Source: an uncultured Gammaproteobacteria bacterium
GTDB taxonomy: Bacteria > Patescibacteriota > Patescibacteriia > Magasanikbacterales > GWA2-37-8
DNA: 64,000 nt
Reading direction: 5' to 3'
Assembly (NCBI GenBank): GCA_964634875.1
Contig: CAZWKA010000003.1
Location: 16,591 to 80,590, forward strand
The position numbers were made by a program, and so were the translations under genes. Of the stretch, positions 2,615 to 64,000 are shown one piece after another. Position 1 is the first letter of the stretch, and every line of letters begins with the position of its first letter. The notes beneath the pieces are model-generated. The model did no database searches. It had not been told where the DNA came from and was given only the letters and a program-made list of their open reading frames with translations.

Positions 2615-5572
2615 ATGATCTTACATCAAAATAAAAAGGAGGGGTCATTTATTCGTTTTCACAAAAGACATTTTCTTGTTGCGTTTATAGTTATGGTAGT
2701 GAGCACAGTATTTGTTACTGGGCTCGTTTTATTTTTTGTTAATTTATATCCACCTGGTTTGTCGCGCGCGGCTACTGTCGTTTGGACAGGTGAGACAGGG
2801 GATGGTTTGTGGCAAACGGCAGGCAACTGGAGCGGATCAGCTGTCCCGACTGCTTCTGATGATGTGACTATAGCTTCAACCAGTACTTTAATTACGGTGA
2901 CACTTTCATCGGGGCAAACGGCTAATTTTAGCACCCTAACTATTGGCGGGGAAACGTTATTGACTAATTTTATCCTCGAAGGGAATATTGGAACCGGTGG
3001 AAGTATTACAATTGATAACTCTGGTGTATTGGAGCAAAAGAATGCTGTTACTCAAACAATTAGTGGTACGCTGACTATAAAGGGCGGGGCAACTGGCGGT
3101 AAGTTAACACATACAGGAAATGCTTCTTCACAGAGTTATATTTTGAATTTTGTAGCTCAAGCTATTGATGTGCAAGCGGGTGGAGTCATTGATATTACGG
3201 GAAAAGGTTATGGAGATGCCAATTCTGGCCCCGGTCCTGGTATCGGTCAATCCAATGAGGGTGTTATTGAGTCAGGTGGTGGGGCGCACGGCGGTAATGG
3301 TGGAACGTATAATTTTTCACAAGGCGGCATTGGTTATTGTTTGGTAACCGATATTACAACCATGGGTTCGCCAGGTGGGCAGGCTGGTGGAGAGACTTTT
3401 AACGACCCAAGGCATGGTGCGGGAGGTGGGCTTGCTCTGCTGCGCTCGATCGCGACTACAACATTAAATGGTTCAATTATTGCTTCAGGTGCCGCAGGTA
3501 CTACTCTTGCAGACAACACGTATAGCGGAGGTGGGGGTGGAGGTGGTTTGCGAATTACTGCTGGCGGTGCGATTGCAGGTACTCCAACCGCAGTAACAGC
3601 TAACGGGGGCGCTGGTTTTGGTGAAGGTTCGGCCGCTGGCGGAGGTGGTTGTATTCAGTTGTCCTACCATACAACAAACTCAATTACCGCTCTTGGAGAC
3701 ATGGTAACGGTTGATGGCGGTGCTCAGTTTGTAGGTGCAAATCCGACTGCTGGTTTATTTTACGCTGCCCAAACTAATGCAGTCCCAACTACTACTGTTA
3801 CCAGCGTTGTTCAATCAACGACTTCCACAGTTACTTTTGTCGCCAGTGTCACTGATGTTGATTTAGACGTAACAAGCCTTGTGGTAGAACATTCGCTCGA
3901 CGGCGCAAACTGGTCGTCTTCTACGCTGGGTAGTGTTACCCCAAGCCAGGGGTCGGTCAGCACTTCAACCGGCCGTATTTCTGGTATTGCCACCGACACT
4001 GCTACTACGACACTAACAGCAGTTTGGAATATCGGGATCGACGCGCCGACAACAACAACCTCGACTGCCTACATGCGTTTTGTTCCAACCGACGGCGCAC
4101 TTACCGGCGCTGTGGCCACTTCGACAGTTTTTTCTATTGTAACGGTTCCCCCGAGTGATTTAAATATTACGAGCGTGACAGACCATGAAGCGAATTTTAC
4201 CTGGTCAACCCAGGATGTTTTTACAAGTTATGCGCTGCAAGATGTTGCTAATGCCGTTTCATCCGGATGGGTTACCGGGGATAGTCATCAGATTACTGAT
4301 TTAACCTGTGGAGTTGCATATACTTTTGCTATTAAAGGTAAAAGCAGTGCGGATGTTGAAACTGGTCTTTCCGCTAGTATTGCGACCACAACACTTAATT
4401 GTGGTCCAGCCTTTTCGGCGAGCGGGGGTGGTGGGGGTGGTGGAGCAAGTGATTCAGGAAGCTCTGCTCCAGCGCCGAGCCCAAGCACAGACGCGCCACA
4501 GCAACTGGTAACTGTACCTTTATTTTTACAACCACCGGTAACTCCTGAAGTGCTATTAAATGTACCTCTTACGCCCGTGCCGCAGGACAGGCTTTTGCAA
4601 CCGCTTACGGTTTTGCCGCCACCAACGACACCGTTGGTTCCAGACACCGTAGTATTGCCGCCACCGTTGCCTCCTCAGGAAGTGCAGTTGATTTTAAACC
4701 AGCAAGAACAAATAGCGCAAATCATTACCCAATCCGCCCAGGTCATTGCTCCTGTACTACAAGTAACCACGCCGGTAACGGTCGGTGCAGCGACGCACAG
4801 TGTAACGGTTTCCGCTGCTTCCGCATCGAGTATTACATTTGTTCTTCGTTCTAATCCAATTACCCTTACTCTACAGGCCGGTGAGCAGCGTGAGGCTGAT
4901 ACAGACGGGGATAGTGTGACAGATGTCTTGGTGTCATATAAAGGCTTGTTGGAAGGAAAACCGCTTTTGGCTTTAGCGCCGCTGATTAATCAGGATGAAG
5001 CTGTGGGTCCGTTTACCATCAATACCGGTGCCCTGCAGACAAAATCAACCGATGTGTTGCTTACCTTTGGTGTGAAGGATATTCGTTCGATAGAAATTTC
5101 TAATACACCAGATTTTGTTTCGAGCGTGCACTTTGTTGCTGCTTCTTCAACGCGCTGGAGGCTTCCTACTGAGGCTGGTGTCGCTACGGTGTATGCCCGT
5201 ATTTATAAAAATAATGATACGGTCGTTGGGGTGAGTGATAGTATCTTTGTCCGACCAGAAGCTTTGCCTAATTGGTCGGCTGTGATCCCGAAACCCGTTG
5301 CAACCTCCACCGTACCGGTACAAAAAGCGAAGCCAGTACCTGTGGTGTTTAAAACTCCCCTGAGAGCTGGTAGTGTGGGGAATGAAGTTCGCATGCTTCA
5401 AGTAATTCTTAAAGCGCAGGGGTTATTTCCCGTGCAGCAAGCCGTAACCGGTTACTTTGGTCAGTTTACGTACCAAGGGGTTGTCGCTCTGCAAAAGAAA
5501 AATTCCCTTACCCCTATCGGTCAGGTTGGGCCGCAGACGAGGGCACTTCTGAATGTTTTATCTGCTGAGTAA
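2615..5572 (+). CDS. large cell-surface protein with N-terminal TM anchor, Gly-rich beta-helix-like repeats, FN3-like segments, Pro-rich linker and C-terminal peptidoglycan-binding domain
   Basis: 985 aa. N-terminal hydrophobic helix, GGxGGxG runs and a PxxP-rich region. The C-terminal GNEVRMLQVILKAQG...GYFGQFTYQGVVALQK fits the PG_binding_1 pattern. Confidence 0.6.
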   Translation: MILHQNKKEGSFIRFHKRHFLVAFIVMVVSTVFVTGLVLFFVNLYPPGLSRAATVVWTGETGDGLWQTAGNWSGSAVPTASDDVTIASTSTLITVTLSSGQTANFSTLTIGGETLLTNFILEGNIGTGGSITIDNSGVLEQKNAVTQTISGTLTIKGGATGGKLTHTGNASSQSYILNFVAQAIDVQAGGVIDITGKGYGDANSGPGPGIGQSNEGVIESGGGAHGGNGGTYNFSQGGIGYCLVTDITTMGSPGGQAGGETFNDPRHGAGGGLALLRSIATTTLNGSIIASGAAGTTLADNTYSGGGGGGGLRITAGGAIAGTPTAVTANGGAGFGEGSAAGGGGCIQLSYHTTNSITALGDMVTVDGGAQFVGANPTAGLFYAAQTNAVPTTTVTSVVQSTTSTVTFVASVTDVDLDVTSLVVEHSLDGANWSSSTLGSVTPSQGSVSTSTGRISGIATDTATTTLTAVWNIGIDAPTTTTSTAYMRFVPTDGALTGAVATSTVFSIVTVPPSDLNITSVTDHEANFTWSTQDVFTSYALQDVANAVSSGWVTGDSHQITDLTCGVAYTFAIKGKSSADVETGLSASIATTTLNCGPAFSASGGGGGGGASDSGSSAPAPSPSTDAPQQLVTVPLFLQPPVTPEVLLNVPLTPVPQDRLLQPLTVLPPPTTPLVPDTVVLPPPLPPQEVQLILNQQEQIAQIITQSAQVIAPVLQVTTPVTVGAATHSVTVSAASASSITFVLRSNPITLTLQAGEQREADTDGDSVTDVLVSYKGLLEGKPLLALAPLINQDEAVGPFTINTGALQTKSTDVLLTFGVKDIRSIEISNTPDFVSSVHFVAASSTRWRLPTEAGVATVYARIYKNNDTVVGVSDSIFVRPEALPNWSAVIPKPVATSTVPVQKAKPVPVVFKTPLRAGSVGNEVRMLQVILKAQGLFPVQQAVTGYFGQFTYQGVVALQKKNSLTPIGQVGPQTRALLNVLSAE

Positions 5573-5573
5573 T

Positions 5574-5611
5574 AAAAAAATATCCACCTTGAGTAAGGTG
5601 GATATTTTTTT
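5574..5611 (+). terminator. rho-independent terminator
   Basis: Stem ATATCCACCTT gagt AAGGTGGATAT followed by TTTTTTT. Confidence 0.8.
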
Positions 5612-5681
5612 GATGCTCCACTTCGTCCTATCGCTCATACGAACTAATTCGTAGGAATGATAGGGTGGGCGAAGTGGGGTG

Positions 5682-5714
5682 GGGGCTCCGCGCGTTTTTG
5701 GCGCGCGGAGCCCC
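5682..5714. repeat. perfect 13-bp GC-rich hairpin at the left edge of a high-GC islet
   Basis: GGGGCTCCGCGCG-tttttgg-CGCGCGGAGCCCC. It is preceded by a second long imperfect inverted repeat at 5617-5680. Confidence 0.7.
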
Positions 5715-5726
5715 TGGATTGGCTTT

Positions 5727-6380
5727 CTAGCGGCGCCAGAAAGCCAGAAACATGAGGGCGAAGGGTGCGGTGCAGACCGCGCCGAGGAACACGAACGCGA
5801 CGAACCGTGCTCTCGGCGAGATCCGGCTGACGCGCCGGATGGCCTGGGTGCGGCGCTCCTGCTCGGGGATCAGCGTATATGGCTGCGTGCCGTTGCTGAT
5901 GGGGTGCCGCTGCGTGCCCTGCTCTGTGATGGGGAACAGGCCGGTCTCAGCCCCACGCAGAACCGCGAGCTGCATGGTTCCCTCTCTGGACAGGTCGAGT
6001 GTCGGGATCTCTTTGGTGTCGTCCTCGTCGCCCATGCTCTGCACCTCTTTGGTGGCGGTGAGCTGGCGCTCGAACGCGGCCAGGCGCAGGTTCAGCAGGG
6101 TCTTGTCCGGATCCTCCTCCAGTTCGTCAAGGAGGGGGGTGAGAGCCTGAAGCGGGGTGACAGACGAGGCCGGCGGCGGCACCTCAAGCGGCCGAGCCAA
6201 CAGTGTCAGCGCGTAGGCCTCCTGGTGGAAGCCGCGCGGGTTCGTGGGCGTACGCTCATCCCCGAAGAGAGGGGGTGTGCGGCTCGAGGGCGGGCTGTCG
6301 GCAGAGCTCTGCGGCGGGCACGACGGGTCAATCAGGGGCTTGGCGAAAAGGGGCGGAGTCAGACTGCTGTGCGTCTTCAT
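5727..6380 (-). CDS. proline-rich protein with C-terminal transmembrane tail anchor, encoded in a high-GC islet
   Basis: ATG at 6380 has GAGGT 6 nt upstream. The C-terminal stretch FVAFVFLGAVCTAPFALMFLAFW is hydrophobic. GC is visibly far above the flanks, and the opposite strand also shows long ORFs, as expected for GC-rich DNA. Confidence 0.45.
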   Translation of the reverse strand: MKTHSSLTPPLFAKPLIDPSCPPQSSADSPPSSRTPPLFGDERTPTNPRGFHQEAYALTLLARPLEVPPPASSVTPLQALTPLLDELEEDPDKTLLNLRLAAFERQLTATKEVQSMGDEDDTKEIPTLDLSREGTMQLAVLRGAETGLFPITEQGTQRHPISNGTQPYTLIPEQERRTQAIRRVSRISPRARFVAFVFLGAVCTAPFALMFLAFWRR

Positions 6381-6420
6381 GACTGTTACCTCGCTGGGTG
6401 GCAAAAAAGGTCGGGCATTG

Positions 6421-6469
6421 TAGCGGTGAAACAGTCTGATTAATAGCTTTATTAGACTGTTTCACCGCT
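6421..6469. repeat. 17-18 bp inverted repeat (hairpin) at the right edge of the high-GC islet
   Basis: AGCGGTGAAACAGTCTGAT ... ATTAGACTGTTTCACCGCT with one mismatch. Confidence 0.7.
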
Positions 6470-6685
6470 AGAACACTTTTTTAAGGAACAAAAAAACCTG
6501 CGGCTTTCGCCTACAGGATGCTCCATCCTAGCACATTTTTAGGGTTTTGTCAAGGGTGTTTTGGGGTATTTTGGCTAATTTTAGCTATTTTTATAGTTTT
6601 AGAGTAGTTCAAATACCACTATTTACTGTTGCGGGCAAACATTTTTAAGCAGTATCTTTTCTTGAGGCAAGAAGTTATTAGTGGT

Positions 6686-11179: not shown

Positions 11180-11545
11180 TTAATAACTAGAGTACCTGCC
11201 GTAGTATACGACGGGTGTAGGGCGGTAGCTGTGGTACGTAGGGTAATTGCGCGTTTGCCACGAGCGTAGCGGAGCATATAAACGGGTTGGTGTGGTACGC
11301 AAATAGGCGGGGGCAGGCGGGGGCACGTAACCGCGCTTGGTGACAGGCTGGTTGGGTATCGTGGTGGGGGAGGCATGGTCGGCAGCATCATGTCCATCTG
11401 CTGCATGTTCTGTTTCTTCGTTGTCGTCGTGGCTGTGCCCCGGTTCAACTATGGTCCAGGCCTGGGCTGATTCAGTTGGTCTGAGAATGGCGAGGCTAAG
11501 CGCCAGAAAGAAAAAAATTCCTATCCACGCGTGTTTGTTTTTCAT
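11180..11545 (-). CDS. small secreted His/Asp-rich protein (possible metal-binding)
   Basis: ATG at 11545. Signal peptide MKNKHAWIGIFFFLALSLAIL. Acidic His-rich segment HSHDDNEETEHAADGHDAADH. Confidence 0.4.
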   Translation of the reverse strand: MKNKHAWIGIFFFLALSLAILRPTESAQAWTIVEPGHSHDDNEETEHAADGHDAADHASPTTIPNQPVTKRGYVPPPAPAYLRTTPTRLYAPLRSWQTRNYPTYHSYRPTPVVYYGRYSSY

Positions 11546-11637
11546 AGGTAGTAGATTACATATATACAGTACTCTTGTAAGCCTCATGGTTTGGGGCGCA
11601 CAAGAGTGCTCGAGGCCGACGATCCGACCTCGGTTTG

Positions 11638-12309
11638 TTATTCGTCTGCTGGTTCGTCGATCAGTGTGCTGGGTGCTCGGGGAACCAAATCTAGCTGAAG
11701 GTACTGTGGCGACGCGGGTTGTTTTGGTTCTGTTTCCCGCTTGAGAGCGAATTTCCACCCCAGCATGAGCGGTACCAAGTGCCATTCCCAAGGGTGCCCG
11801 TTCGCCAAGTTGAGCGGTGCCAGCATGGCTGCTTCGCTGCCGATGACAAAACCTTTGTACCGGAAACTGATGCCGCCGAGCAGCGGGCCGAGTTTGACTT
11901 CGGTCTGGCTCTGGTAGGGCTTTTCAATTTCTAGCACGATTCCAGGCAGGTGCAGTTCGAGCGACCAATGCTCGCTAAGGTGGATATCAAGCCCGCCGGT
12001 AAGGTGAATGTCGCCACCCGCCCGGTCGCCACCAATTGCCGCGTGCAGGCCGGCAACAATGCCAAAGTCGACGCTGCCCGCTTCGGCGAAAGGGAATTCA
12101 AACTCGAAACAGAGCGGGGTCATGAGTTGGAGGATAAATCCGCTTCCACCCTTGAGGCCAGTTGTGGCCGTGCGGGAACTATCGTATTTGGTGGGGGAGG
12201 CTACCGCTTGGCCGGAAAATATTGGGCCACCGCACCACAAGGCTGAGGGGGATTCGGCCCTCGCAACAATGCTCCAGGCAAGGAGCGTGACGATAACGAG
12301 GTAGCGCAC
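11638..12309 (-). CDS. secreted beta-strand-rich protein (porin/OmpW-like pattern)
   Basis: GTG start at 12309 with AAGGAGA 5 nt upstream. Signal peptide. Alternating hydrophobic pattern and a C-terminal aromatic residue. Confidence 0.4.
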   Translation of the reverse strand: MRYLVIVTLLAWSIVARAESPSALWCGGPIFSGQAVASPTKYDSSRTATTGLKGGSGFILQLMTPLCFEFEFPFAEAGSVDFGIVAGLHAAIGGDRAGGDIHLTGGLDIHLSEHWSLELHLPGIVLEIEKPYQSQTEVKLGPLLGGISFRYKGFVIGSEAAMLAPLNLANGHPWEWHLVPLMLGWKFALKRETEPKQPASPQYLQLDLVPRAPSTLIDEPADE

Positions 12310-12324
12310 AGGCTTCTCCTTAAA

Positions 12325-12337
12325 GCAACTTAGTTGC
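12325..12337. promoter_or_regulatory. palindrome GCAACTTAGTTGC (copy 2)
   Basis: Lies 16 bp upstream of the GTG start of the 11638..12309 gene on its promoter side. Extended motif GCAACTTAGTTGCACTTGTACCACAGG. Confidence 0.5.
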
Positions 12338-12368
12338 ACTTGTACCACAGGAATACCTAGTTGTCAAT

Positions 12369-12450: not shown

Positions 12451-12891
12451 ATGACTACTTCGCACCAAGTTATCGCTGACCTTAAGGATCGGGGAGAGCG
12501 CATTACCGAAATCCGGCGCATCTTGGTAGACATTCTCGCCAAAAGTCACAAGCCGTTATCGGTGCAAGATATTTTGGCGAAATTAAAAATTCGCTGTATT
12601 GAGGCGAATAAAACCACCGTCTATCGTCAATTGGAAACGCTCCATAAGTATAATTTTATTTACGAAGTGCGTTTGGCGGATCGTTCGGTTTTGTACGAGC
12701 TTGCCAGTGAAGACGATCACCACCATCATTTAGTGTGTCTCGGTTGCGGTACGATAGAAGATGTGTCGTTTAAGGACGACGTGGAACGCCAGGAAAAAAA
12801 TATTTTAAAAATAAAGAAATTTAAAGTTGTGCGCCACTCGCTCGAATTTTTCGGCTGGTGCGCTAAATGTCAGAAAAAATATGGCAAATAA
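12451..12891 (+). CDS. Fur-family metalloregulator (Zur/Fur-like)
   Basis: 146 aa. HHHHLVCLGCG ... CAKC metal-binding motifs and a winged-helix N-terminus. Confidence 0.8.
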   Translation: MTTSHQVIADLKDRGERITEIRRILVDILAKSHKPLSVQDILAKLKIRCIEANKTTVYRQLETLHKYNFIYEVRLADRSVLYELASEDDHHHHLVCLGCGTIEDVSFKDDVERQEKNILKIKKFKVVRHSLEFFGWCAKCQKKYGK

Positions 12892-13810
12892 TTTTTGGAA
12901 ACAAGTATCGCGTGCTCTCGGTATCGTTGTTGTTCTCGCAGCAGTAGCTTTGGTTTTTTATTTTTTGGTTACGCGAGAAAATAAAATTACCCCACCCGAT
13001 GATCGACTTACAGTTAGCACTTCCTTTTATCCGTTGACGTTTTTAGTTGAGGGTATTGCGGGCGATCTTGCAATAGTGAACACCATTACCCCGGCCGGGG
13101 CAGAACCGCATGAGTACGAACCAACGACGCAGGATCTGGTAGCGATCGAAAAAAGCAAGCTACTTTTTTTGAACGGCGCTGGTTTTGAATCGTGGGCCGA
13201 GGGGTATGTTTCTGCTGGCGCCACTATTGTTCCGGTCGCTGACACGCTGGTAACGCAGAATTTTGTTGCGGGAGAAAGTGTGGCCCGCGATCCGCATGTC
13301 TGGCTTGACCCCACGCTCGCCAAAGCCTCGGCTCAGATTGTGCTTGATGCCTTGGTTGCAGCTGACCCTGGTCATGAACAAGAATACAAGGTAAACGCCG
13401 AAACCTTTTTAAAACAATTTGATGATCTCGACGCCGCCTTTCAGGCAGGCCTTGCTACATGCGCACGCCGTGATATTGTTACGGGGCATGCTGCGTTTGG
13501 GTATTTGGCTGCCCGGTACACATTAACCCAGGTACCGATTTCGGGTTTGTCGCCGGACGAAGAGCCTTCACCGCGGCGGATGGCCGAGGTGGCTGAGTTT
13601 GTTAAAAATAGTGGGGTAGAGTATATTTTCTTTGAAAGCCTGGTGAACCCAGAGCTTGCAGTAACAATTGCCAATGAAGTTGGTGTCAAAACGCTAGTAC
13701 TTAATCCGCTTGAAGGGTTGACGCCAGACGAAGTATCTCAAGGTAAAAATTATTTTACGGAAATGCGCCAAAACCTTGCTCACCTTAGAACCGCTCTCCA
13801 ATGTCAGTAG
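12881..13810 (+). CDS. metal (Zn/Mn) ABC transporter substrate-binding protein, TroA/ZnuA family
   Basis: Overlaps the regulator stop by 11 nt. N-terminal anchor. Cluster A-1 binding-protein motifs EPHEYEPT and DPHVWLDP. Confidence 0.75.
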   Translation: MANNFWKQVSRALGIVVVLAAVALVFYFLVTRENKITPPDDRLTVSTSFYPLTFLVEGIAGDLAIVNTITPAGAEPHEYEPTTQDLVAIEKSKLLFLNGAGFESWAEGYVSAGATIVPVADTLVTQNFVAGESVARDPHVWLDPTLAKASAQIVLDALVAADPGHEQEYKVNAETFLKQFDDLDAAFQAGLATCARRDIVTGHAAFGYLAARYTLTQVPISGLSPDEEPSPRRMAEVAEFVKNSGVEYIFFESLVNPELAVTIANEVGVKTLVLNPLEGLTPDEVSQGKNYFTEMRQNLAHLRTALQCQ

Positions 13811-17862: not shown

Positions 17863-17898
17863 CTAATAGTACCAAGGTCGTTCGTAGAGTGTTTTGTA

Positions 17899-17937
17899 AA
17901 AAAATACCCAAACTTTTTAAGTTTGGGTATTTTTTTG
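17899..17937. terminator. bidirectional terminator hairpin
   Basis: AAAATACCCAAAC-tttttaa-GTTTGGGTATTTTT. Confidence 0.75.
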
Positions 17938-18006
17938 TGGCCACGAGTGGGGTCGTTAGCGCGCACGCCTCGTGGATACGTGAGTGGGCAGGGGAAAGCG
18001 GTCGAG

Positions 18007-18435
18007 CTAGTTGAGGGGCTCGAGGGCGATCGTGACCCAGCGCTCGCTCTCGAGCTGCTGCTGCCGGGGCTGTCGTAGCCGCTCCTGGCTTAGCCGAAAC
18101 GAGGCACGCAGGAACGTCTCGAAGGCTGAGGCGCGTAGCGGGTTCATCTTGATGTAGTAGCACCGCCACCAGTTGGGGTTGGCTCGGTCGAAGGTGGTCG
18201 AACGGGTCGTCCGGCTCTTCTGGACCATGACGAGGATGCGACGCCCGGGACCCTTGTCGTCTTCCCGAACGAGCTCGCCTTCGTCGTCGATGCCGACGAA
18301 TTCCCTGAGGACGCGCAGAATGTCCTCGTGGAAGATGGAAACCTGGCCTGGCCACCGTGCCGCTTCTCCGTCGGAGAGCTGGTGGACCAGGATACCGGGC
18401 TCAGCCACCTCTTTACTCGCTGCTTCGATCATCAA
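18007..18435 (-). CDS. hypothetical protein encoded in a high-GC islet
   Basis: ATG at 18435 with AAGGAGG 5 nt upstream. 142 aa with no recognisable motif. GC visibly about 60% versus low-40s flanks. Confidence 0.4.
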   Translation of the reverse strand: MMIEAASKEVAEPGILVHQLSDGEAARWPGQVSIFHEDILRVLREFVGIDDEGELVREDDKGPGRRILVMVQKSRTTRSTTFDRANPNWWRCYYIKMNPLRASAFETFLRASFRLSQERLRQPRQQQLESERWVTIALEPLN

Positions 18436-18556
18436 GGCCTCCTTGGGGGTTGATAACGTGGCAGTTTATATAGCATGCCTGGTTTTGTCAATGATTAGAC
18501 CTGTCCAACAAAAAAAGACTATCGCAGAGACAGTCTTTTTGTTGGTTAAGACGTGG

Positions 18557-21452: not shown

Positions 21453-21716
21453 ATGGCCACTTCTTGTGCACATATTTCCGAAATTAAAGCTGTTACCCCG
21501 ATAACACCGGACGGCTGCACAGACTGTCTTACGACTGGTGACGAGTGGGTGGCGCTCCGTCTCTGTCTGTCGTGCGGAAATGTAGGTTGCTGTGATTCTT
21601 CCAAAAATAAACATGCGACCAAACATTTCGAGGCAACCGGCCACCCGATCATGCAGGCCTACCAAGAGGGCAAAGAATGGAAATGGTGTTATGTGGATAA
21701 GATATATGTACTATAA
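21453..21716 (+). CDS. zf-UBP-type zinc-finger protein
   Basis: The CAH...C..C....W..L..C..CG..GCC....H...H pattern matches UBP-type zinc fingers. Confidence 0.55.
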   Translation: MATSCAHISEIKAVTPITPDGCTDCLTTGDEWVALRLCLSCGNVGCCDSSKNKHATKHFEATGHPIMQAYQEGKEWKWCYVDKIYVL

Positions 21717-21850
21717 AAAAATAACCCCAGGGTTTCCTGGGGTTATTTTATAATGAAGACTGTCCTCACCCTGCCTGCATATGTACATATTCGGGCACGG
21801 TGAGATAAAGGGGACAGTCTTGAGTCTGTGGGGTTGGGGGGTCGTAGCGG

Positions 21851-22285
21851 TTAGCTGAATCGGGAAAGGTCAGTCGGGAACTCGGTCTCGATCACCAGCT
21901 GTAGCGCTGAAACAGAAACCGGTTTCACTAGTGTGCCTTTGATGCCTAGGTTTCGAAGATCCAGACGTTCATGTCCGGTCGCCAGATAGGCGGGAACGTG
22001 GGCGAGAGTGCTGTCAGCCCGCAGTTGCTCGACCAGCCAGAATCCATCGTGCACGGGCATAGAAGCGTCAACGAAGACGAGTTTAAGTCGTTCGCCGACT
22101 GCTCTCGCCTCGTCCAGGCCATCAGCCGCATTCGTGGCGCTGATGATGTGGTAACCTGCGCACAGGCCACTAACGAGCATCGAGAAGAGCTCGGTTGTGT
22201 CAGGGCAGTCATCAACAACCAGGATGACAGGTCGGCCTTCCGGCCTGCTGGATGTGGGGAGTGCTTCTGGAGTATGGGTCAGCAT
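21851..22285 (-). CDS. stand-alone response-regulator receiver (CheY-like) domain protein, high-GC islet
   Basis: ATG at 22285 with GGAGA upstream. VILVVDD...LVFVDASMP...LATG...K motifs. The ORF may extend to 22345. Confidence 0.55.
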   Translation of the reverse strand: MLTHTPEALPTSSRPEGRPVILVVDDCPDTTELFSMLVSGLCAGYHIISATNAADGLDEARAVGERLKLVFVDASMPVHDGFWLVEQLRADSTLAHVPAYLATGHERLDLRNLGIKGTLVKPVSVSALQLVIETEFPTDLSRFS

Positions 22286-22386
22286 GAGAATTCTCCGCGT
22301 GAAGTGGAATAGAGGTACCCTGTGCCTAAAACACTCTTTTGTCAAGCCCAGACCCCATTTCTTGAAAATAACGGGTGGCCAGGGTA

Positions 22387-28965: not shown

Positions 28966-31809
28966 ATGTCGATCTTAACCAAGATTTTCGGTGACCCGAA
29001 CGCCAAAGTGCTCAAGGAACTCCAGCCGCTGGTGCAAAAAATTAATGACTTAGAAAGTTCGCTGGCCGGGCTTTCGCATGCTGAGCTTCAAGCAAAAACT
29101 CCGGAGTTTAAAGCCCGCCTCGCAAAAGGTGAGACGCTTGATGACCTTTTGCCGGAAGCGTTTGCGGTTGTGCGCGAAGCCTCGAAGCGCCTTACGGGCA
29201 TGCGGCATTTTGATTCACAATTGATTGGTGGTATCGTGCTTCATCGCGGGAACATTGCTGAGATGCATACTGGTGAAGGTAAGACCTTGACCGGGACGTT
29301 GCCGGTGTATTTAAACGCGCTCGCCGGAAAAGGTGCGCACGTTGTTACAGTGAATGATTATTTGGCTAAACGTGACGCTGTTTGGATGGGGCAAATTTAT
29401 GATTTTTTGGGGCTCAGCGTTGGTATTATCCAGAACCAGCTCGTGTCGTATCGGTACAATGCTTTGGCCAAAGCTACTCCTGCGCTTGCCGAAGGAAGTA
29501 CGGAAGATGCAGAGCGTGATCAAAAAGGAATGTTTAAAGTTGAATATGATTATCTTGATGCCTGTAGTCGGCCGGCCGCTTACCAGTGCGATATTACCTA
29601 TGGCACCAACAATGAATTTGGCTTTGATTATTTGCGCGACAACATGGTCCAGTCCCTCGACGATCGGGCGCAGCGTGATTTGCATTTTGCGATTGTCGAT
29701 GAAGTTGACTCGATTTTGATTGACGAAGCGCGAACCCCGCTTATTATTTCGGCTCCCGCGGAAGAGGCCGCGGATATGTACTATCGTTTTGCCGACCTGG
29801 TTGCGCAGTTGGTTAAGAATGATGATTATAATGTTGATGAAAAATTGCGTTCCGCCACGCTGACTGACACGGGTATCAAAAAAATTGAAGGGTGGCTGGG
29901 TGTTGAGAATATCTATGCTGAAGGCGGCATCACTACCGTGCATCATGTAGAGCAAGCTTTGCGTGCCCGAGCACTTTTTGCACGCGACCGAGATTATGTT
30001 GTTGAGAACGGTGAAGTCGTGATCGTTGACGAGTTTACGGGTCGTAAAATGCCGGGGCGGCGTTATAGCGAAGGTCTCCATCAGGCGATTGAAGCCCAAG
30101 AACGCGTCAAGATCCAGCGTGAAAGCCGGACCATGGCTACGGTTACTTTCCAGAATTATTTCCGCATGTATGCCAAACTCTCAGGCATGACCGGTACGGC
30201 TGTAACTGAGGCCGAAGAATTCGGTAAGATTTACAAGCTCGAGGTTGTTGTTATTCCAAGTAATAAAAAAAGCCAGCGCATCGACCATCCGGATCGGATA
30301 TATAAGACCGAGGACGCTAAATTCCGGGCGATCGCCAAACAAGTCCGTGTGCTCCAAGACCAGGGTCAGCCGGTTTTGATCGGTACTATTTCCGTCCAGA
30401 AAAATGAACAGCTTGCCTTGTATTTGGAGCAGGAAGGTGTGCAGTACCAAATGCTCAACGCCAAGAACCATGAACGTGAAGGTGAGATTGTCGCCCAAGC
30501 CGGTCGTCCAGGGGCAACGACGCTTGCCACCAACATGGCTGGGCGTGGTGTCGATATCATTATGGGTGGTAACCCGCCCGAAAAAGAATTGGCTGAGAAA
30601 TCCCGTGGTAGCGGTGGTTTGTTTGTGATTGGTACCGAACGCCACGAATCACGCCGGATCGACAATCAGCTTCGTGGACGTTCGGGTCGTCAAGGTGACC
30701 CGGGTGAAACGCAGTTTTATCTTTCGACTGACGATGATCTTATGCGTATTTTTGCCGGTGAACGTTTGAAGAGGGCGATGGATGCTCTGCGTGTACCGGA
30801 TGATATGCCGATTGAACAGCGGACTATTACCAAATTGATCGAGTCAGCCCAGCGCAAAGTAGAAGGTTTTCATTTTGATACGCGCAAACACCTGCTTGAG
30901 TACGATGATGTCCTTAATCGCCACCGTGAAGTCATTTATGGTATGCGCCGCGAGATTTTGGAGAGCTATAAACAAGAAAAGGACCGATTGGCTGGGATCG
31001 TTTCGGAAGCAAAGGTGGTCGGGGCACCTGGTGAGGAGACTCAAGTTCCTGCCGGGGAAGCTGCACTGCGTCAGCGTGTTTTTCAGATGATCGAAAATGA
31101 GATCGAGCAACTCGTTTCGTTCCACACCAGTGCAGAAGACAAGGCTGAGTGGCAAATGCAAGAAATTTATCAAACAGCCGCTACAATATTCCCATTTTCG
31201 GCCGAAGAAAAAGAAGTGCTCTTGAAATTTGGTTCTTGGGGCGAAGAGAAAATGGAAGCGGTGGAAGAGCGTACCCGAGTGATCACCTATTTGACTGACC
31301 TGGCGAAACGTAAGTATGAGGATTTGCTGGTTAAGAAAACGGGTAAACCCGAATATATTTTGGAGATCGAAAAGCAAATGCTCTTACGTTCCATTGATAA
31401 TTTATGGATAGAACATCTTGTAGCCGTTGATTACCTCCGTACGGGCATTGGTCTGCGTGGGTATGGCCAGCGCGACCCATTGGTTGAATATAAAAAAGAA
31501 ACGTACCGGATGTTCAACGAGCTCTTGAGTCTGATCCAAAAAGAAGTGGTGTATACCATCTTTAAAGTTAGTATTGGTATTGAATTGGCTCCAAGTATTA
31601 TGGAGGCCGGCAACATGCAGTTCCAAGGTGCGGCAAAAACCATGGGTGGTGAAGTCGCTGCTCCGGCTAGTCGTGATCCAAAAAATGTCGAAGGTGAAAC
31701 GATGGGGCGTAATGATGTTTGCTTCTGTGGCAGCGGGGTCAAATACAAACGCTGTGGCATGGTGAATAGCCAGGAGCACCAAAAAAATTTGACGAGTAAG
31801 AAGCAATAA
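28966..31809 (+). CDS. secA: preprotein translocase ATPase SecA
   Basis: 947 aa. Unmistakable SecA sequence with Walker A GEGKTLT and a C-terminal zinc-binding CxxC...C tail. Confidence 0.95.
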   Translation: MSILTKIFGDPNAKVLKELQPLVQKINDLESSLAGLSHAELQAKTPEFKARLAKGETLDDLLPEAFAVVREASKRLTGMRHFDSQLIGGIVLHRGNIAEMHTGEGKTLTGTLPVYLNALAGKGAHVVTVNDYLAKRDAVWMGQIYDFLGLSVGIIQNQLVSYRYNALAKATPALAEGSTEDAERDQKGMFKVEYDYLDACSRPAAYQCDITYGTNNEFGFDYLRDNMVQSLDDRAQRDLHFAIVDEVDSILIDEARTPLIISAPAEEAADMYYRFADLVAQLVKNDDYNVDEKLRSATLTDTGIKKIEGWLGVENIYAEGGITTVHHVEQALRARALFARDRDYVVENGEVVIVDEFTGRKMPGRRYSEGLHQAIEAQERVKIQRESRTMATVTFQNYFRMYAKLSGMTGTAVTEAEEFGKIYKLEVVVIPSNKKSQRIDHPDRIYKTEDAKFRAIAKQVRVLQDQGQPVLIGTISVQKNEQLALYLEQEGVQYQMLNAKNHEREGEIVAQAGRPGATTLATNMAGRGVDIIMGGNPPEKELAEKSRGSGGLFVIGTERHESRRIDNQLRGRSGRQGDPGETQFYLSTDDDLMRIFAGERLKRAMDALRVPDDMPIEQRTITKLIESAQRKVEGFHFDTRKHLLEYDDVLNRHREVIYGMRREILESYKQEKDRLAGIVSEAKVVGAPGEETQVPAGEAALRQRVFQMIENEIEQLVSFHTSAEDKAEWQMQEIYQTAATIFPFSAEEKEVLLKFGSWGEEKMEAVEERTRVITYLTDLAKRKYEDLLVKKTGKPEYILEIEKQMLLRSIDNLWIEHLVAVDYLRTGIGLRGYGQRDPLVEYKKETYRMFNELLSLIQKEVVYTIFKVSIGIELAPSIMEAGNMQFQGAAKTMGGEVAAPASRDPKNVEGETMGRNDVCFCGSGVKYKRCGMVNSQEHQKNLTSKKQ

Positions 31810-31810
31810 C

Positions 31811-31874
31811 AAAAAACCATCCGCCATGCACTGAATACATTTTGTATACTCAGTGCATGGAGCGGACGGTTTTG
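31811..31874. terminator. long imperfect hairpin (about 28-bp stem) after secA, likely bidirectional terminator
   Basis: AAAACCATCCGCCATGCACTGAATAC ... GTATACTCAGTGCATGGAGCGGACGGTTTT. Confidence 0.6.
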
Positions 31875-31907
31875 TCCTTTTAGGAAAGGGTGGGCGTCTG
31901 CGTTGTT

Positions 31908-32312
31908 CTACGGTTCGATGATGTCGGGGTAGTCCGACAGGTCGCAGGGGTTACGACGGCTGAGCAGTTCAGGGGCGGGGTGATCCGCGCTCAAGTAGAA
32001 CATGAATTCAACGTCCTCGGGGCCGATGTGGAGCGCGACGTAACCGCTGATGCTACCAATGGTTTGTTTGGTATATACCTTGGTGTGTCCATGGTAGTCG
32101 CGGAAGGCGATCTTCGCTGGTACGCCGCGGTTGGCGAGGATGACGCAGGTCGGCCACTTCTTGGGATCAGTGACGCGCGGAGCATTGGGGTCGCCAGCGA
32201 CTCGGAGGGCTTCGCCGAGTTTGGGGTCAGTTGGCGATGTATCCTCCCAGCCGGAGCAGTTGCCAAACCCGAGACAGGTAGTGCCCAACAGTGCTAACAG
32301 GTGTTTGTTCAT
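31908..32312 (-). CDS. small secreted protein encoded in a high-GC islet
   Basis: ATG at 32312 with AAGGAGA upstream. Signal peptide MNKHLLALLGTTCLGFGNC. Confidence 0.4.
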   Translation of the reverse strand: MNKHLLALLGTTCLGFGNCSGWEDTSPTDPKLGEALRVAGDPNAPRVTDPKKWPTCVILANRGVPAKIAFRDYHGHTKVYTKQTIGSISGYVALHIGPEDVEFMFYLSADHPAPELLSRRNPCDLSDYPDIIEP

Positions 32313-32383
32313 CAAGTTTCTCCTTGCGCGAGGAATGTTTACACGGTATTGTCATCGTGTCAATATTGTTTGTTAGGTATAGT

Positions 32384-32845
32384 ATGATTGCTTCAAAAAA
32401 ACACTGGCTCCTCAAAAGCGAACCATCCGCCTATTCAATTGATGATTTTAAACGCGACAATACCACTATTTGGGAAGGCGTTCGTAATTATCAGGCACGG
32501 AATTTTATGCGTGATGAAATGCGCGTAGGGGATTTGTTTTTATTTTACCATTCTAATAATGATATGGTTGGCGTCGTGGGTGTGGGCAAGATCGTTGAAG
32601 TGGGTGTGCCTGATCCCAGTGCGCTTGATGTGAAGAGTGATTATTTTGATCCTAAAGCAAGCAAAGAAAAAAATGTTTGGACAACGGTGCGCGTACAATT
32701 CGTTAAAAAGCTGCCGCGCTGCATTTCACTTGATGAAATAAAAAAACATCCTGTGCTTAAAAAAATGATGGTGGCGCAAAAGGGAGTTCGGTTGTCAGTA
32801 CAGCCTGTGTTGGTCGAAGCGTATGCTACGCTTATGGCGCTATGA
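32384..32845 (+). CDS. EVE (PUA-like) domain protein
   Basis: HWLLKSEP...WEGVRNYQARNFMRDEMRVGDLFLFYHS is the typical EVE N-terminus. Confidence 0.75.
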   Translation: MIASKKHWLLKSEPSAYSIDDFKRDNTTIWEGVRNYQARNFMRDEMRVGDLFLFYHSNNDMVGVVGVGKIVEVGVPDPSALDVKSDYFDPKASKEKNVWTTVRVQFVKKLPRCISLDEIKKHPVLKKMMVAQKGVRLSVQPVLVEAYATLMAL

Positions 32846-32973
32846 AATGGTAATAAAAATATCCCGATCGTGTCGGGGTATTTTTTTATTTCCTTGAGTG
32901 TGTCCACAAATTTTTATGAACACAATGGGGGAGGAGAATGGCGGCTGGGTTAAGCGGCTCGTTCTCCAGGTGG

Positions 32974-33465
32974 CTAGGTTAGGCCGAGAAGTCCGGCAAG
33001 GATATAGAGACCAAGTGCGACAGCGACACCGAGTAGCACAGCGTACAGCCTTGTCTGGCTTGGCATATGTTCAAACGGTGGCAGAATAACCTCTTCGGTG
33101 TTGTCTGCCGGATCGCGGGAGAGGGGCGGGATTGTCGGCGCCGTCGCCCGCTTGGTGAGCACTGTAGGTCGCATTGTCCGGGGAGGATAGATGGGTACCG
33201 GCACTGCCCCTAGTGGCCTCGTGTGCCTTTGGACTTCATAGACAGGGTCAGCATCGATGTTAGTCTGCCCAACTTCTACTTGAGGTGCTGGCGGGGGCGT
33301 AGGCAGGCCGAGGTAGTTGGCTTCGAGCACCGTGGGTTGCACCGGCAGTGCTGCGGGTGGTGGCTGGGGTGTCTCGCCAGGCCTGCCCAAGATGCGTTCG
33401 AGCAGGGTGGGCTGGTTACGCTTTGCGACCGGGGTAACTGGGGCTCGTGGTCTCAGTTTTGCCAT
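32974..33465 (-). CDS. proline-rich protein with C-terminal TM tail anchor, high-GC islet (paralog-like of 5727..6380)
   Basis: ATG at 33465 with GAGGA upstream. C-terminal LYAVLLGVAVALGLYILAGLLGLT. Pro-rich throughout. Shares the ..QRH..P..G.. segment and overall architecture with the 5.7-kb islet protein. Confidence 0.45.
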   Translation of the reverse strand: MAKLRPRAPVTPVAKRNQPTLLERILGRPGETPQPPPAALPVQPTVLEANYLGLPTPPPAPQVEVGQTNIDADPVYEVQRHTRPLGAVPVPIYPPRTMRPTVLTKRATAPTIPPLSRDPADNTEEVILPPFEHMPSQTRLYAVLLGVAVALGLYILAGLLGLT

Positions 33466-33486
33466 GGCGTTTCCTCGTTTGAGGGG

Positions 33487-33540
33487 TTTTTCCAGTTTTT
33501 GGAAGAGCCAAGTAGCTTGGCGGTTCTAAGAACTGGAAAA
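33487..33540. repeat. nested inverted repeats (hairpin within hairpin) flanking the high-GC islet
   Basis: Outer TTTTCCAGTTTTTGGAA...TTCTAAGAACTGGAAAA. Inner GCCAAG-tag-CTTGGC. Confidence 0.6.
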
Positions 33541-33657
33541 TTGCCTAAATAGCAGCTTATCGTATATCTTTGTCTTTTCTTTGTCAATTGGTGCAGAAGC
33601 GCCCTGTTGGTAGCAGTCACTCTTTCTGTTATAGTAAAAATAGACGCTTTTATACGT

Positions 33658-34254
33658 ATGCCTCAAAAATCAAAACAACAGGCGCTTGACCGTGTAGCCG
33701 AAGAAATCCGGCAATGTTTGGTTTGCCAGAAAGGTAAAACCGGACTGGCTGTACCGGGCGAAGGGAACCCGGACGCCAACATCGTTTTTCTCGGTGAGGC
33801 CCCGGGCAAAGAAGAGGCTAAAACCGGTCGGCCGTTTATTGGGCGGTCGGGAAAATTATTGCGTGAAATGATCGGTAAGTTGGGTATCCGTCCAGAGGAT
33901 GTTTTTATTACTAGCCCGGTAAAATATTTACCCACATATATTACTCCAACGCCCGATGATATTGCGCATGGTAAAATTCATTTAGAAGAGCAGTTGTCTA
34001 TAATACAACCGGCGGTCATTGTTCTTTTGGGTAGGGTGGCGGCCTTGGCTGCGCTGGGTTCGATTGGTCCGGTTTTAAAAAAACACGGGACGGTTATCTC
34101 CAAAGATGGAAGAAATTATTTTTTGACTATCCATCCGGCGGCTCCGTTGTATGCCCCTAAGATGAAAGTCGTCATTGAGGAGGATTTTAAAATACTGCGT
34201 CTTTTTTTAAAGCAGCAATTTTCTTTGAAAAATACCGGGATGAAGACTAAATAA
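33658..34254 (+). CDS. uracil-DNA glycosylase family 4 (Fe-S type)
   Basis: GEGNPDANIVFLGEAPGKEE...GRPFIGRSGKLL motifs. Cys residues near the N-terminus. Confidence 0.75.
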   Translation: MPQKSKQQALDRVAEEIRQCLVCQKGKTGLAVPGEGNPDANIVFLGEAPGKEEAKTGRPFIGRSGKLLREMIGKLGIRPEDVFITSPVKYLPTYITPTPDDIAHGKIHLEEQLSIIQPAVIVLLGRVAALAALGSIGPVLKKHGTVISKDGRNYFLTIHPAAPLYAPKMKVVIEEDFKILRLFLKQQFSLKNTGMKTK

Positions 34255-34349
34255 TGGCTTAAAAATGGCCTTTTTTTAACTCCTTATCCACTTGTCAAAA
34301 AGAGTAGAACAGAGTAAGATGCTGGAGAAATTAGTTCTTAATTATCAGT

Positions 34350-36398
34350 ATGCCTGCTAAACCTCAGCATTTCAGCAAGACGCCGACGCATTCCCAGGTA
34401 AAATCGAGACTGGCCGGTATTTTAATACTCGTTGTTTTTTGTGCAGTTGTGGCTGCGCCAGCCTACGCCAATAAAGGTATTGATTGGGTAAACAACACCG
34501 CCAACCTCGGGTTGCCCCGATTACCGGATAACGGTTACAACCTTGGTCTTGATCTCCAGGGTGGCGCACACCTCGTGTACCAAGCGAAAACAGATGCTAT
34601 TGCCGAAGCTGATAAAGCTAGTTCGGTTGAGGGTGTGCGTGATGTTATCGAGCGTCGTGTCCGTGGTGGTTTGGGTGTATCAGAACCGCTCGTCCAGACG
34701 ACTAAGGTTGGGAGTGATTACCGCATCATTGTTGAACTGCCTGGCGTGACGGATGTTAATCAGGCGATTAAGAGTATTGGCGAAACACCTGTTCTAGAAT
34801 TTAAAGAAGAAAATACTGCCCCACCACGGGAATTGACTGCAGCCGAAACAAAACAGCTCACTGATTTTAATAAAGCCGCTGATACAAAAGCGAAAGAAGC
34901 CCTTCGGGCAGTGCAGCGCGGCATGAACTTTGCTGAAGCCGCGGCTAAGTATAGTGAGGATGAAAAAACTAAGACCGCCGGCGGAGATCTAGGTTTTATT
35001 GATGAGACCGTCTATCCAGAATTATTTGCCTGGGCTAAAACCCACAAAGTAAATGAAGTCGGTAATGCTTTGGTTACGACGCCGACAGGTCTGAATGTCG
35101 TAAAAAAAGTAGCAGAAAAAGAGGGTGAAAAAGAAGTTACAGCTTCGCACTTGCTGATTTGTTTTGCCGGTGCCACGCGCTGTGATGACGCGCAATATTC
35201 TAAGGAAGATGCTCTTAAGAAAATCCAGGAAATTAAAGCAACGATTACTCCAAAAAACTTTGCCGAAAAGGCAAAAGAATTTTCGACTGAACCCGGGGCT
35301 GACCAGAGCGGTGGCGTACTTGGCACTTTTAAAAAAGGAGCTTTGGTAAAACCGTTTGAGGATGCTGTTTGGGATCAGAAAGTTGATACCATTTCTGAGC
35401 CAGTGGAAACGGAGTTTGGTTACCATCTTATCCATAAGACCGGTGAGGCAATCGCTAAGCAGTACCAGGTTGCTCGCATTTTGGTAGCCACTAAAACCAA
35501 GACAGATATCGTCCCACCAGCAGAACAGTGGAAATCAAGCGGCCTTACCGGTAAGCAGCTCGAACGAGCCGAGGTTACCCAAAACCAAATTACCGGAGAT
35601 ATCCAGGTAAGCCTTAATTTTGATGATGAAGGTTCTAAGTTATTTGCTGATATTACCGGCCGTAATGTGGGGAAAGCAGTAGCTGTTTTCCTTGACGGTG
35701 AAATTATCAGTGCCCCGGTTGTTAACGCGGCAATTACCACGGGGAGTGCGGTAATTACGGGTGGGTTTAGCTTGACTGACGCTAAGCTTTTGGCGCAGCG
35801 CCTTAATTCAGGTGCGTTGCCGGTACCAGTTGAGCTCCTCAGCCAGCAAACCGTGGACGCTACGCTTGGTGCTGATTCGCTTGATAAGAGTTTCCGTGCT
35901 GGTGTCTTTGGTTTGATTGCAGTTATGGTCTTTATGATTCTTTATTACCGCTTACCAGGCCTTTTGTCCGTACTATCCTTGGCTTTCTACGCCCTCCTGA
36001 GTTTGGCGGTATTCAAATTGATGGGTGTAACATTGACGCTCTCTGGTATTGCTGGGTTTATTCTTTCCATCGGTATGGCGGTTGACGCTAATGTGCTTGT
36101 ATTCGAGCGTCTTAAAGAAGAGTTGGCTGCGGGTCGAACGCTTAAGTCAGCTACTGAAGAAGCCTTTATTCGTTCGTGGCCTTCAATTCGTGATAGTCAT
36201 ATTACCGCCCTCATCAGCTGTGTCTTCTTGATTTGGTTTGGTACTGGGTTTATCCAAGGTTTTGCCGTTATCTTGGGAATTGGTACTTTAATTAACCTGT
36301 TTACCGCCATCACGGTAACGAGGACAGTCATGCGGTCGGTTTTCCCTTTCCTTAATGAAAAAGGAAATATTCTCTTTTTAGGATATAAAAAAGATTAA
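34350..36398 (+). CDS. secD: protein translocase subunit SecD with two inserted parvulin-type PPIase domains
   Basis: The SecD N-terminal TM helix and C-terminal 6-TM RND-like domain are present. Two parvulin signatures are inserted in the periplasmic domain: AGGDLGFIDETV and SGGVLGTFKKGALVKPFEDAVW. Confidence 0.8.
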   Translation: MPAKPQHFSKTPTHSQVKSRLAGILILVVFCAVVAAPAYANKGIDWVNNTANLGLPRLPDNGYNLGLDLQGGAHLVYQAKTDAIAEADKASSVEGVRDVIERRVRGGLGVSEPLVQTTKVGSDYRIIVELPGVTDVNQAIKSIGETPVLEFKEENTAPPRELTAAETKQLTDFNKAADTKAKEALRAVQRGMNFAEAAAKYSEDEKTKTAGGDLGFIDETVYPELFAWAKTHKVNEVGNALVTTPTGLNVVKKVAEKEGEKEVTASHLLICFAGATRCDDAQYSKEDALKKIQEIKATITPKNFAEKAKEFSTEPGADQSGGVLGTFKKGALVKPFEDAVWDQKVDTISEPVETEFGYHLIHKTGEAIAKQYQVARILVATKTKTDIVPPAEQWKSSGLTGKQLERAEVTQNQITGDIQVSLNFDDEGSKLFADITGRNVGKAVAVFLDGEIISAPVVNAAITTGSAVITGGFSLTDAKLLAQRLNSGALPVPVELLSQQTVDATLGADSLDKSFRAGVFGLIAVMVFMILYYRLPGLLSVLSLAFYALLSLAVFKLMGVTLTLSGIAGFILSIGMAVDANVLVFERLKEELAAGRTLKSATEEAFIRSWPSIRDSHITALISCVFLIWFGTGFIQGFAVILGIGTLINLFTAITVTRTVMRSVFPFLNEKGNILFLGYKKD

Positions 36399-45812: not shown

Positions 45813-46226
45813 GTGGATATGAAGAACATCATTTTTGCTTCCTTGGCAGTTTCCTGTGGCATTGGATGTGCGCATCAGCCGCGCGTGGCTCCGCTACTGC
45901 CGGTCAAATCACGCCCAGGCCTTAACCGCGAGAAGATCCTGGTCGAAGTTGCTCCCTCAAACTTGTTTGGGCAGCATTATGCAGGCCTTCGGGCTGTGGT
46001 CATATCATTTCAGCCCCAAGAACGTGTCTGGACGTATTCTGGGGGCAACTATGGCCGTACCCCGGTATGCCCCGGTGAGCGTTCGGTGCCATTTTTTTTC
46101 CAGCCGCGTCCAGAGTACGTGTCTCCGGACCTGCGCAACCTCAAAACAGGGCGACGAGCCAAAATGTACTTTTTTCCAAGTACAACCAGGCAAGTTGAGG
46201 TGATCTTTATTTGTCCGGATATGTAG
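45813..46226 (+). CDS. small lipoprotein/secreted protein in a moderately GC-elevated segment
   Basis: Signal peptide MKNIIFASLAVSCGIGCA. No homolog recognised. Confidence 0.4.
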   Translation: MDMKNIIFASLAVSCGIGCAHQPRVAPLLPVKSRPGLNREKILVEVAPSNLFGQHYAGLRAVVISFQPQERVWTYSGGNYGRTPVCPGERSVPFFFQPRPEYVSPDLRNLKTGRRAKMYFFPSTTRQVEVIFICPDM

Positions 46227-63681: not shown

Positions 63682-64000
63682 TGTGTCTCTCCTTGTGTGT
63701 ACGGTTGCCCGCACTCACGAGGATTGACTGGTGGGAATGGGTCAGGTCGTTCGTGCGGTTGTTCAAACAAAAAAGACTAACGTTGGAAACTCATTGGTCG
63801 CCTCCTTGTAAAAGTGCTCGTCGTACCGGACTATCCCGGTTGTTTCGACGGTTTTTGCTCTGTGGTTAGCCAAAGGGAAAAAACCGCTAAAACAAGGCAC
63901 GGAACAAGCCAGTATAGCACAAAAAACGGGTTTTGTCAACCCCCTTTAGGAAGCTCCTGTTACAGTTTTATTGAAGAAATTCGTTGATTTTTTGTTCGAT

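Follow-up and report, generated by a model that had tools for sequence, protein, structure and literature searches.

How did a small GC-rich gene come to lie directly behind secA in a bacterial genome of moderate GC content, and what kind of protein does it encode? The gene, here called islet D, is found on the minus strand between secA and a gene with an EVE domain, in a window of 64 kb (the whole stretch analysed: contig CAZWKA010000003.1 of assembly GCA_964634875.1, positions 16,591 to 80,590) whose overall GC content is 46.7%. A first-pass annotation had described its product as a secreted protein of 134 residues with a signal peptide, separated from secA by an unusually long imperfect hairpin, and had taken the gene, together with a second GC-rich islet (islet E) some 600 bp further on, for a double insertion at the junction between secA and a uracil-DNA glycosylase (UDG) gene. 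The gene, its signal peptide and the hairpin have all been confirmed, and islet E is found at 32901-33550, at about the distance given; the insertion has not stood in the form proposed. The interpretation preferred here, which as a whole is held with moderate confidence, is that islet D is a self-contained gene for an exported protein, provided with a two-way terminator, whose horizontal arrival at this site is old. It would be a monocistronic unit, transcribed divergently from the EVE gene by means of a promoter-like element and a strong Shine-Dalgarno sequence, and would form part of an accessory block (islet D, EVE, islet E, UDG) filling a variable junction between secA and secDF. Most likely it was transferred from a GC-richer gene pool and was already resident before the lineage of the window and that of its relative L083 split.

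L083, on which the dating of the gene depends, is a 1.9-kb contig from a separate sample and sequencing run (SRR23592405, as against SRR12762304 for the window), and its SecA C-terminus and EVE protein are 84% and 69% identical to those of the window. It carries a homologue of islet D (51-54% identical) between secA and EVE, in the same orientation as in the window. This copy has 61.8% GC and a GC content at third codon positions (GC3) of 0.77, against 42-45% GC and a GC3 of 0.41-0.47 in its flanks. The contrast is of the same kind in the window, where the gene has 59-60% GC and a GC3 of 0.73; in windows of 200 nt the GC around it is 0.56-0.63 as against about 0.42-0.50 in the flanks, and GC3 does not exceed 0.63 in any of the non-islet genes of the window, most of them lying between 0.34 and 0.52. 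The DNA had thus rightly been called GC-rich, although the figure of about 58% was slightly low. Given that the same GC-rich gene is present at the same site in L083, islet D is not a recent insertion; the first-pass annotation had itself named a relative with the same gene, in the same position and with similar GC, as what would speak against its proposal, and L083 is such a relative. Moreover, GC-rich DNA also starts past the EVE terminator in L083, at the equivalent of the islet E position. A short block, TTTTTATGAA.A.AA...GGG.GGAG, is conserved between positions 32908-32940 of the window and about 40-75 on the reverse strand of L083; it follows the EVE terminator and is found immediately beyond the 3' end of the islet E gene.

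The synteny of secA with its downstream genes, proposed earlier as a check, has a different outcome in close and in distant relatives. L083 keeps the order of secA, islet D on the opposite strand and EVE. By its SecA the organism of the window belongs to the Patescibacteria. In L002 (a Ca. Magasanikbacteria metagenome-assembled genome whose SecA, 71% identical, is the nearest match among many further SecA sequences), as well as in L007 and L038, secDF directly follows secA. Other relatives hold other cargo at this place: a DUF3850/ASCH gene (12732-13055), a lipoprotein gene and a Peptidase_C39-like gene come after secA in L004 (SecA 61% identical), a Band 7 gene and one for a membrane protein in L009, while 2-4 kb of other DNA lie between secA and secDF in L006 and L044. 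Since secA is followed by secDF or by unlike cargo across these relatives, the junction between secA and secDF is one at which the cargo varies. The variable junction is therefore not the one between secA and UDG that had been named, as EVE and UDG, in spite of their host-like GC, are likewise absent from the loci of the distant relatives, where UDG has no match. The entire block D-EVE-E-UDG (31810-34349) is thus lineage-specific, beyond the two GC-rich genes. Of the proposed double insertion there remain the atypical GC and the absence of the stretch from more distant relatives; its recent and private character is lost, because L083 shares the gene, the site and the GC contrast. As for signs of mobility, the flanks of islet D were found to contain neither a target-site duplication nor a terminal repeat, a tRNA or an integrase, and the 11-nt repeat AACCATCCGCC does not exceed chance expectation and is missing in L083. 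With respect to the cargo itself, the gene right after secA is DUF3850/ASCH in L004, and in both the window and L083 an EVE gene comes shortly behind secA, where only the small islet D gene intervenes. ASCH and EVE are both PUA-like domains; the presence of PUA-like genes near the 3' flank of secA may be a coincidence or a recurring association in this group.

The reading frame of islet D is open throughout. Its ATG (32310-32312) gives 134 residues and an alternative TTG one codon upstream would give 135; the shorter product is preferred because the sequence AAGGAGA is spaced by 6 nt from the ATG and only by 3 nt from the TTG. The Shine-Dalgarno sequence is conserved in L083 as AAGGAGG with its spacing unchanged, and so is the start codon. 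Further upstream, the blocks TTGACA...ATACC.TGTAA are shared by the window and L083 inside a spacer that has otherwise diverged, and the element containing TTGACA is a putative promoter of the gene, not called by a consensus promoter scan. When compared with the copy of L083 by the method of Nei and Gojobori (NG86), the coding sequence has a nonsynonymous divergence (dN) of 0.41 and a synonymous divergence (dS) of at least 1.8. This is consistent with purifying selection, the ratio dN/dS being no more than an upper limit, since dS approaches saturation.

GC-rich DNA yields long open reading frames (ORFs) on both strands, and one of 135 residues on the plus strand (31890-32297) does overlap islet D, whose own protein has no Pfam match. 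That islet D itself is such a spurious ORF, within a GC-rich non-coding element or as an antisense feature, has nevertheless a negligible probability: at least 10 independent contigs contain homologues in which motifs and signal sequences are conserved, a confident fold is predicted by AlphaFold2, dN is far below dS, the Shine-Dalgarno sequence and start codon are conserved, and an Rfam search of islet D found nothing. This reading has been rejected on the grounds of conservation at the protein level.

The hairpin occupies the gap of 98 bp between the stop codons of the convergent secA and islet D genes. Its stem had been announced as about 28 bp. Folding of the plus strand gives 26 pairs at -36.2 kcal/mol (z -6.5) and that of the minus strand 27 pairs at -44.4 kcal/mol (z -7.2), close enough to the announced figure, and none of 200 shuffles was as stable on either strand. 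Immediately 3' of the stem the plus strand reads TTTTGTCCTTTT and the minus strand TTTTTTGTTATTG. As an A-run, a stem and a T-run are legible on both strands between convergent genes, the hairpin is best understood as a putative bidirectional intrinsic terminator, which would end both the islet D and the secA transcripts. It resembles the known bidirectional Rho-independent terminators, in which a GC-containing stem between an A-tract and a T-tract gives a hairpin and a U-tract on both transcripts, but its stem of 26-27 pairs with bulges is unlike the 5-14 pairs of typical terminators. The arm sequence recurs nowhere else within the window, so that it is not a dispersed repeat. In L083 a hairpin of 27 pairs occupies the equivalent position, with its outer stem (AAAAAACCATCCG...CGGAYGGTTTT) preserved and an inner stem that differs in sequence and yet pairs. 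Comparable long hairpins, with arms of 18-26 nt, are found at the edges of other GC-rich islets of the window or close to them (5567-5618, 6418-6473, 17898-17936, 21713-21754 and 63840-63895), and several of them are flanked by A-runs and T-runs, in a design like that of the terminator between secA and islet D. Since hairpins with such flanks border other islets (those at 5567-5618, 6418-6473, 17898-17936 and 63840-63895), this genome appears to use long two-way terminators habitually.

The homology search that had been suggested for the protein led to a family of about 12 members. An exhaustive HMMER scan of 1.84 billion representative proteins returned 11 small proteins of 133-151 residues, the query included, plus three repetitive chance hits, and one further member, P0016, came from a profile search of 5.8 billion proteins. 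No match was obtained in Pfam, NCBIfam, PHROGs or PADLOC, the only match of a sequence-profile search of the PDB was a chance one to a designed TIM barrel, and pattern scans of the JGI metagenomes and IMG/VR gave no relatives. Furthermore, the literature yielded no description of the family, nor one of GC-rich islets in Magasanikbacteria. The family is very rare and uncharacterised.

The protein is probably exported, to judge from its N-terminus: MNKH followed by LLALLGTTCLGFG provides a basic n-region, a hydrophobic core and a cysteine, with a maximal Kyte-Doolittle mean over 11 residues of 1.92 at residue 5, and a hydrophobic N-terminal segment is present in all 12 family members. Export would take place through the Sec system by means of this signal sequence, which in the closest orthologue and in several other members ends in a canonical lipobox. 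The strict pattern [LVI][ASTVI][GAS]C is not matched by the protein of the window at either of its candidate sites, FGNC (Cys19) and GTTC (Cys13). Cys19 is aligned, however, with the cysteine of strict boxes in P0004 (the orthologue, LAGC), P0002 (LAGC) and P0011 (LSGC), and canonical boxes (LGAGC, MGAGC and LSGC) are carried by three other lipoprotein-like ORFs of the window. A lipid anchor is probable in the orthologue and uncertain in the window copy because of its non-canonical FGNC box. The similarities with bacterial lipoproteins, which have a type II signal peptide and are processed by Lgt and LspA, comprise the basic n-region, the hydrophobic core, the conserved cysteine that ends the signal sequence, the L-[AS]-G-C boxes of P0004, P0002 and P0011, and a small, all-beta mature domain with a likely disulfide. 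The differences are the F-G-N-C box of the window protein, a mature domain that belongs to no described lipoprotein family, and the lack of any cysteine in some family members, which may be anchored by their signal or cleaved by signal peptidase I.

In the mature domain, Cys56 and Cys123 occur together in four of the five members that have Cys56, and the C-terminal cysteine is absent in all six aligned members with a tryptophan at position 56. This co-occurrence suggests that the two residues probably form a disulfide, which in turn points to an extracytoplasmic location. The AlphaFold2 model, obtained from the 11-sequence alignment, has a predicted local distance difference test score (pLDDT) of 89, and of about 97 over the mature domain, with eight beta-strands; the mature part of about 115 residues would be a compact eight-strand beta-sandwich, probably pinned by the Cys56-Cys123 disulfide. 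No significant structural neighbour of the model was found. The top matches, all weak, are a carbohydrate-binding module (CBM) of Ruminococcus flavefaciens (PDB 5aot), CBM35 and GOLD domains. The small eight-strand architecture is shared with such beta-sandwich or jelly-roll binding modules (5aot, CBM35, GOLD), and no significant similarity to a CBM family, structural or in sequence, was detected. A role in binding rather than in catalysis has about an even chance of being right; the function most to be expected would be that of a non-enzymatic binding module, surface-anchored or secreted, in the envelope of an ultra-small episymbiotic cell of the Patescibacteria (Magasanikbacteria-like).

A more specific possibility would be a lipoprotein of the TssJ/SciN type, the small beta-sandwich lipoprotein in the membrane complex of type VI secretion (T6SS). 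Its size, lipobox and all-beta fold are similar, and one of the 11 members, P0007, matches the Pfam family T6SS-SciN (PF12790) over 87 residues (E 6e-4). This match reaches only 19.9 bits, however, in comparison with a cut-off of 27 bits, and the window protein itself has none, which leaves the assignment highly improbable; neither likeness to solved TssJ structures nor nearby T6SS genes were found and the lead was rejected.

The origin of the gene is bound up with its composition. Family members have 52-64% GC in every context. In low-GC surroundings they form islets (55% against 41-47% in L086, 58% against 36-40% in L087-89, 53.5% against 37% in L093 and 64% against about 50% in L084), while in the GC-rich contigs L085, L090 and L091 (55-61% GC), whose homologues are only 31-37% identical to islet D, they differ from their neighbours by no more than a few percentage points. 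It is because of this occurrence in contigs of 55-61% GC that an origin in a GC-richer pool is favoured. Horizontal transfer and genomic islands have been documented in Patescibacteria generally (PMC12455944). One member, P0006, is located around 10001-10420 of L085, a 158-kb contig (JGI 3300013121), in a region of about 55% GC rich in genes of mobile-element or defence type (an integrase, a DnaG-like primase, RadC, a SNF2 helicase and a prokaryotic ubiquitin-like E1/E2/JAB cluster), a setting which hints at an ability of the family to move with mobile elements. Another, P0011, is preceded by a gene for a second orphan protein of 146 residues with 56% GC (1008-1448 in L087, 280-720 in L088), so that the islet there comprises two genes, between flanks of 36-40% GC. 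As in horizontally acquired islets and ORFans, GC and GC3 of islet D are far from those of the host, the gene is absent from distant relatives and has almost no homologues, and its site is a junction of variable cargo; unlike them, it consists of one gene only, lacks mobility genes, repeats and a tRNA, and has kept its position in a relative near synonymous saturation with its GC3 unameliorated.

Several points weigh against the preferred interpretation of an old transfer of an exported-protein gene. As regards the protein, the FGNC box with its Asn at -1 is not canonical. As regards the transfer, no donor lineage was recognised and signatures of mobility are absent from the flanks of the gene. 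Above all, a simple old transfer fails on composition, since passive amelioration should have erased most of the GC excess. At four-fold sites, secA and EVE of the window and L083 are 38% identical, compared with a random expectation of 26-27% (Jukes-Cantor K about 1.3), and islet D is 34% identical, compared with 40% expected from composition, which means that these sites are fully randomised; they nevertheless have about 82% G+C in both sequences alike. A two-state calculation suggests that passive retention from one ancestral acquisition would require an ancestral GC3 above 1, so that either the composition has been actively maintained or each of the two lineages received its allele separately from a GC-rich pool.

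The latter of these alternatives, in which the site between secA and EVE is a recombination cassette and the alleles of the window and L083 were received separately and fairly recently from a shared GC-rich pool by homologous recombination in the conserved flanks, would account for a GC3 that is unameliorated despite near-saturated neutral divergence, for a protein identity of 51-54% beside 69-84% in the flanks, and for an inner hairpin stem that has been swapped wholesale while the outer stem is conserved; in addition, low-GC and high-GC contexts are found together in each of the two sequence subgroups of the family, which indicates several transfers. Such a replacement is rather unlikely all the same, for descent alone commonly makes exported proteins diverge this fast, the promoter, the Shine-Dalgarno sequence and the outer stem are conserved right to the edge of the coding sequence, and a GC-rich donor with secA and EVE flanks is not known, the comparison being one of two genomes. 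Less support still is given to active maintenance, which is judged unlikely. Islet D would here be native, or resident for a long time, and its preference for GC-rich codons ending in C would be upheld by selection on codon use or mRNA properties or by a gene-specific mutational bias; the same force would act on the other GC-rich islets of the genome. Such maintenance is suggested by GC3 values of 0.73 and 0.77 in two lineages in spite of randomised four-fold sites, and by the eight GC-rich single-gene islets in 64 kb, mostly encoding orphan envelope-type proteins, where related genomes have far fewer. No mechanism is known, however, for gene-specific maintenance of GC in a bacterium of 46% GC, the native lipoprotein and housekeeping genes of the window show an ordinary GC3, and the family members of GC-rich contigs suggest that the composition arrived with the gene. 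Finally, the insertion first proposed, if taken as recent and private to this genome, has become very unlikely; in this reading each of the two islets, D and E, entered the secA-UDG junction from a donor of high GC and is still unameliorated. The strong contrast in GC and GC3 and the absence of the islet D gene from the loci of the closest GTDB representatives speak for a recent insertion, but L083 has the gene, the GC contrast and the hairpin at the same site, with flanking synonymous sites near saturation; direct repeats beyond chance, terminal inverted repeats, a tRNA and an integrase are lacking, and EVE and UDG, of host-like GC, are equally absent from distant relatives.

Islet D is not alone in its composition. 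Eight GC-rich islets, with 57-69% GC and a GC3 of up to 0.84, are distributed over the 64 kb (5551-6500, 11201-12350, 17901-18500, 21851-22350, 31851-32350, which is islet D, 32901-33550, which is islet E, 45851-46150 and 62451-63850), and far fewer are found in the loci of related Patescibacteria. Most are single minus-strand ORFs without a Pfam match, with the exception of a receiver-domain protein (21851-22345), and several of the products have signal peptides, lipobox-like cysteines or C-terminal hydrophobic tails. The islets of the window show no paralogy to islet D or to one another. Islet E reaches 64% GC, the tail of its protein is LYAVLLGVAVALGLYILAGLLGLT, and a search of 5.8 billion proteins with it retrieved only itself. 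The same order of a proline-rich region and then a hydrophobic tail at the C-terminus is seen in a 225-aa ORF on the minus strand (5727-6404) of the islet with 69% GC, with no sequence similarity between the two proteins. Between the start of islet E and UDG there is an imperfect inverted repeat (33479-33549; arms of 34 nt, 76% complementary, 3-nt loop), for which Rfam gave only a chance miRNA match, and just upstream of this repeat lies a sigma-70-like site, TTGACA-17-TACGAT (minus strand, 33587-33559).

Islet D might thus be one of a class of single-gene GC-rich islets placed between housekeeping genes in this Magasanikbacteria-like lineage, often on the opposite strand, which encode fast-evolving orphan envelope proteins, are bordered by long two-way terminators and seem to hold their GC3 instead of letting it decay; this wider view is put forward tentatively and is doubtful. 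If it were true, nucleotide composition would have to be under selection, or alleles would have to keep arriving from a GC-rich partner pool, such as a host organism or a mobile element of the episymbiont, and the islet D protein would be the founding member of a new fold family of beta-sandwich surface proteins. The features of the locus are collected in Table 1.

Table 1. Coordinates of islet D, its signals and the neighbouring genes in the 64-kb window.
Feature	Position	Strand	Remarks
secA (947 aa)	28966..31809	+	Upstream gene, convergent with islet D; stop 31807-31809
Long imperfect hairpin	31813..31873		Between secA and islet D; A6 run on 5' side, T-run on 3' side
Islet D coding sequence (134 aa + stop)	31908..32312	-	Stop 31908-31910; predicted small exported beta-sandwich protein
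Signal sequence (predicted), residues 1-19, MNKHLLALLGTTCLGFGNC	32256..32312	-	
Shine-Dalgarno sequence AAGGAGA	32319..32325	-	6 nt 5' of ATG
Promoter-like element of islet D	32335..32363	-	TTGACA 32358-32363; TG 32342-32343; -10-like AAACAT 32335-32340
EVE-domain gene (153 aa)	32384..32845	+	Pfam PF01878, E 3e-49; divergent from islet D, 71-bp spacer
Islet E gene (163 aa, proline-rich, C-terminal hydrophobic tail)	32974..33465	-	61% GC; singleton orphan
UDG superfamily gene	33655..34254	+	Pfam PF03167, E 9e-30; closes the block without counterpart in distant relatives
secDF fusion gene	34350..36398	+	Directly follows secA in L002, L007 and L038

Taken by itself, islet D is a real, well-formed and ordinary accessory gene, and both an ORFan exported protein and a bidirectional terminator are of known kinds; only the persistent excess of GC3 and the density of islets (eight in 64 kb, few in relatives) are unusual. 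The secA-secDF junction has been shown to be a variable cargo site in this group. The GC3 excess, kept in two lineages near saturation, is a small counter-example to the usual argument from amelioration, and it follows that a contrast in GC alone is not to be read as a recent insertion in these genomes. Moreover, islet D defines a very rare, confidently folded and uncharacterised family of exported beta-sandwich proteins, seen mainly as GC-rich islets, and such exported proteins are candidates for the cell-surface interactions needed by the ultra-small, host-dependent Patescibacteria.
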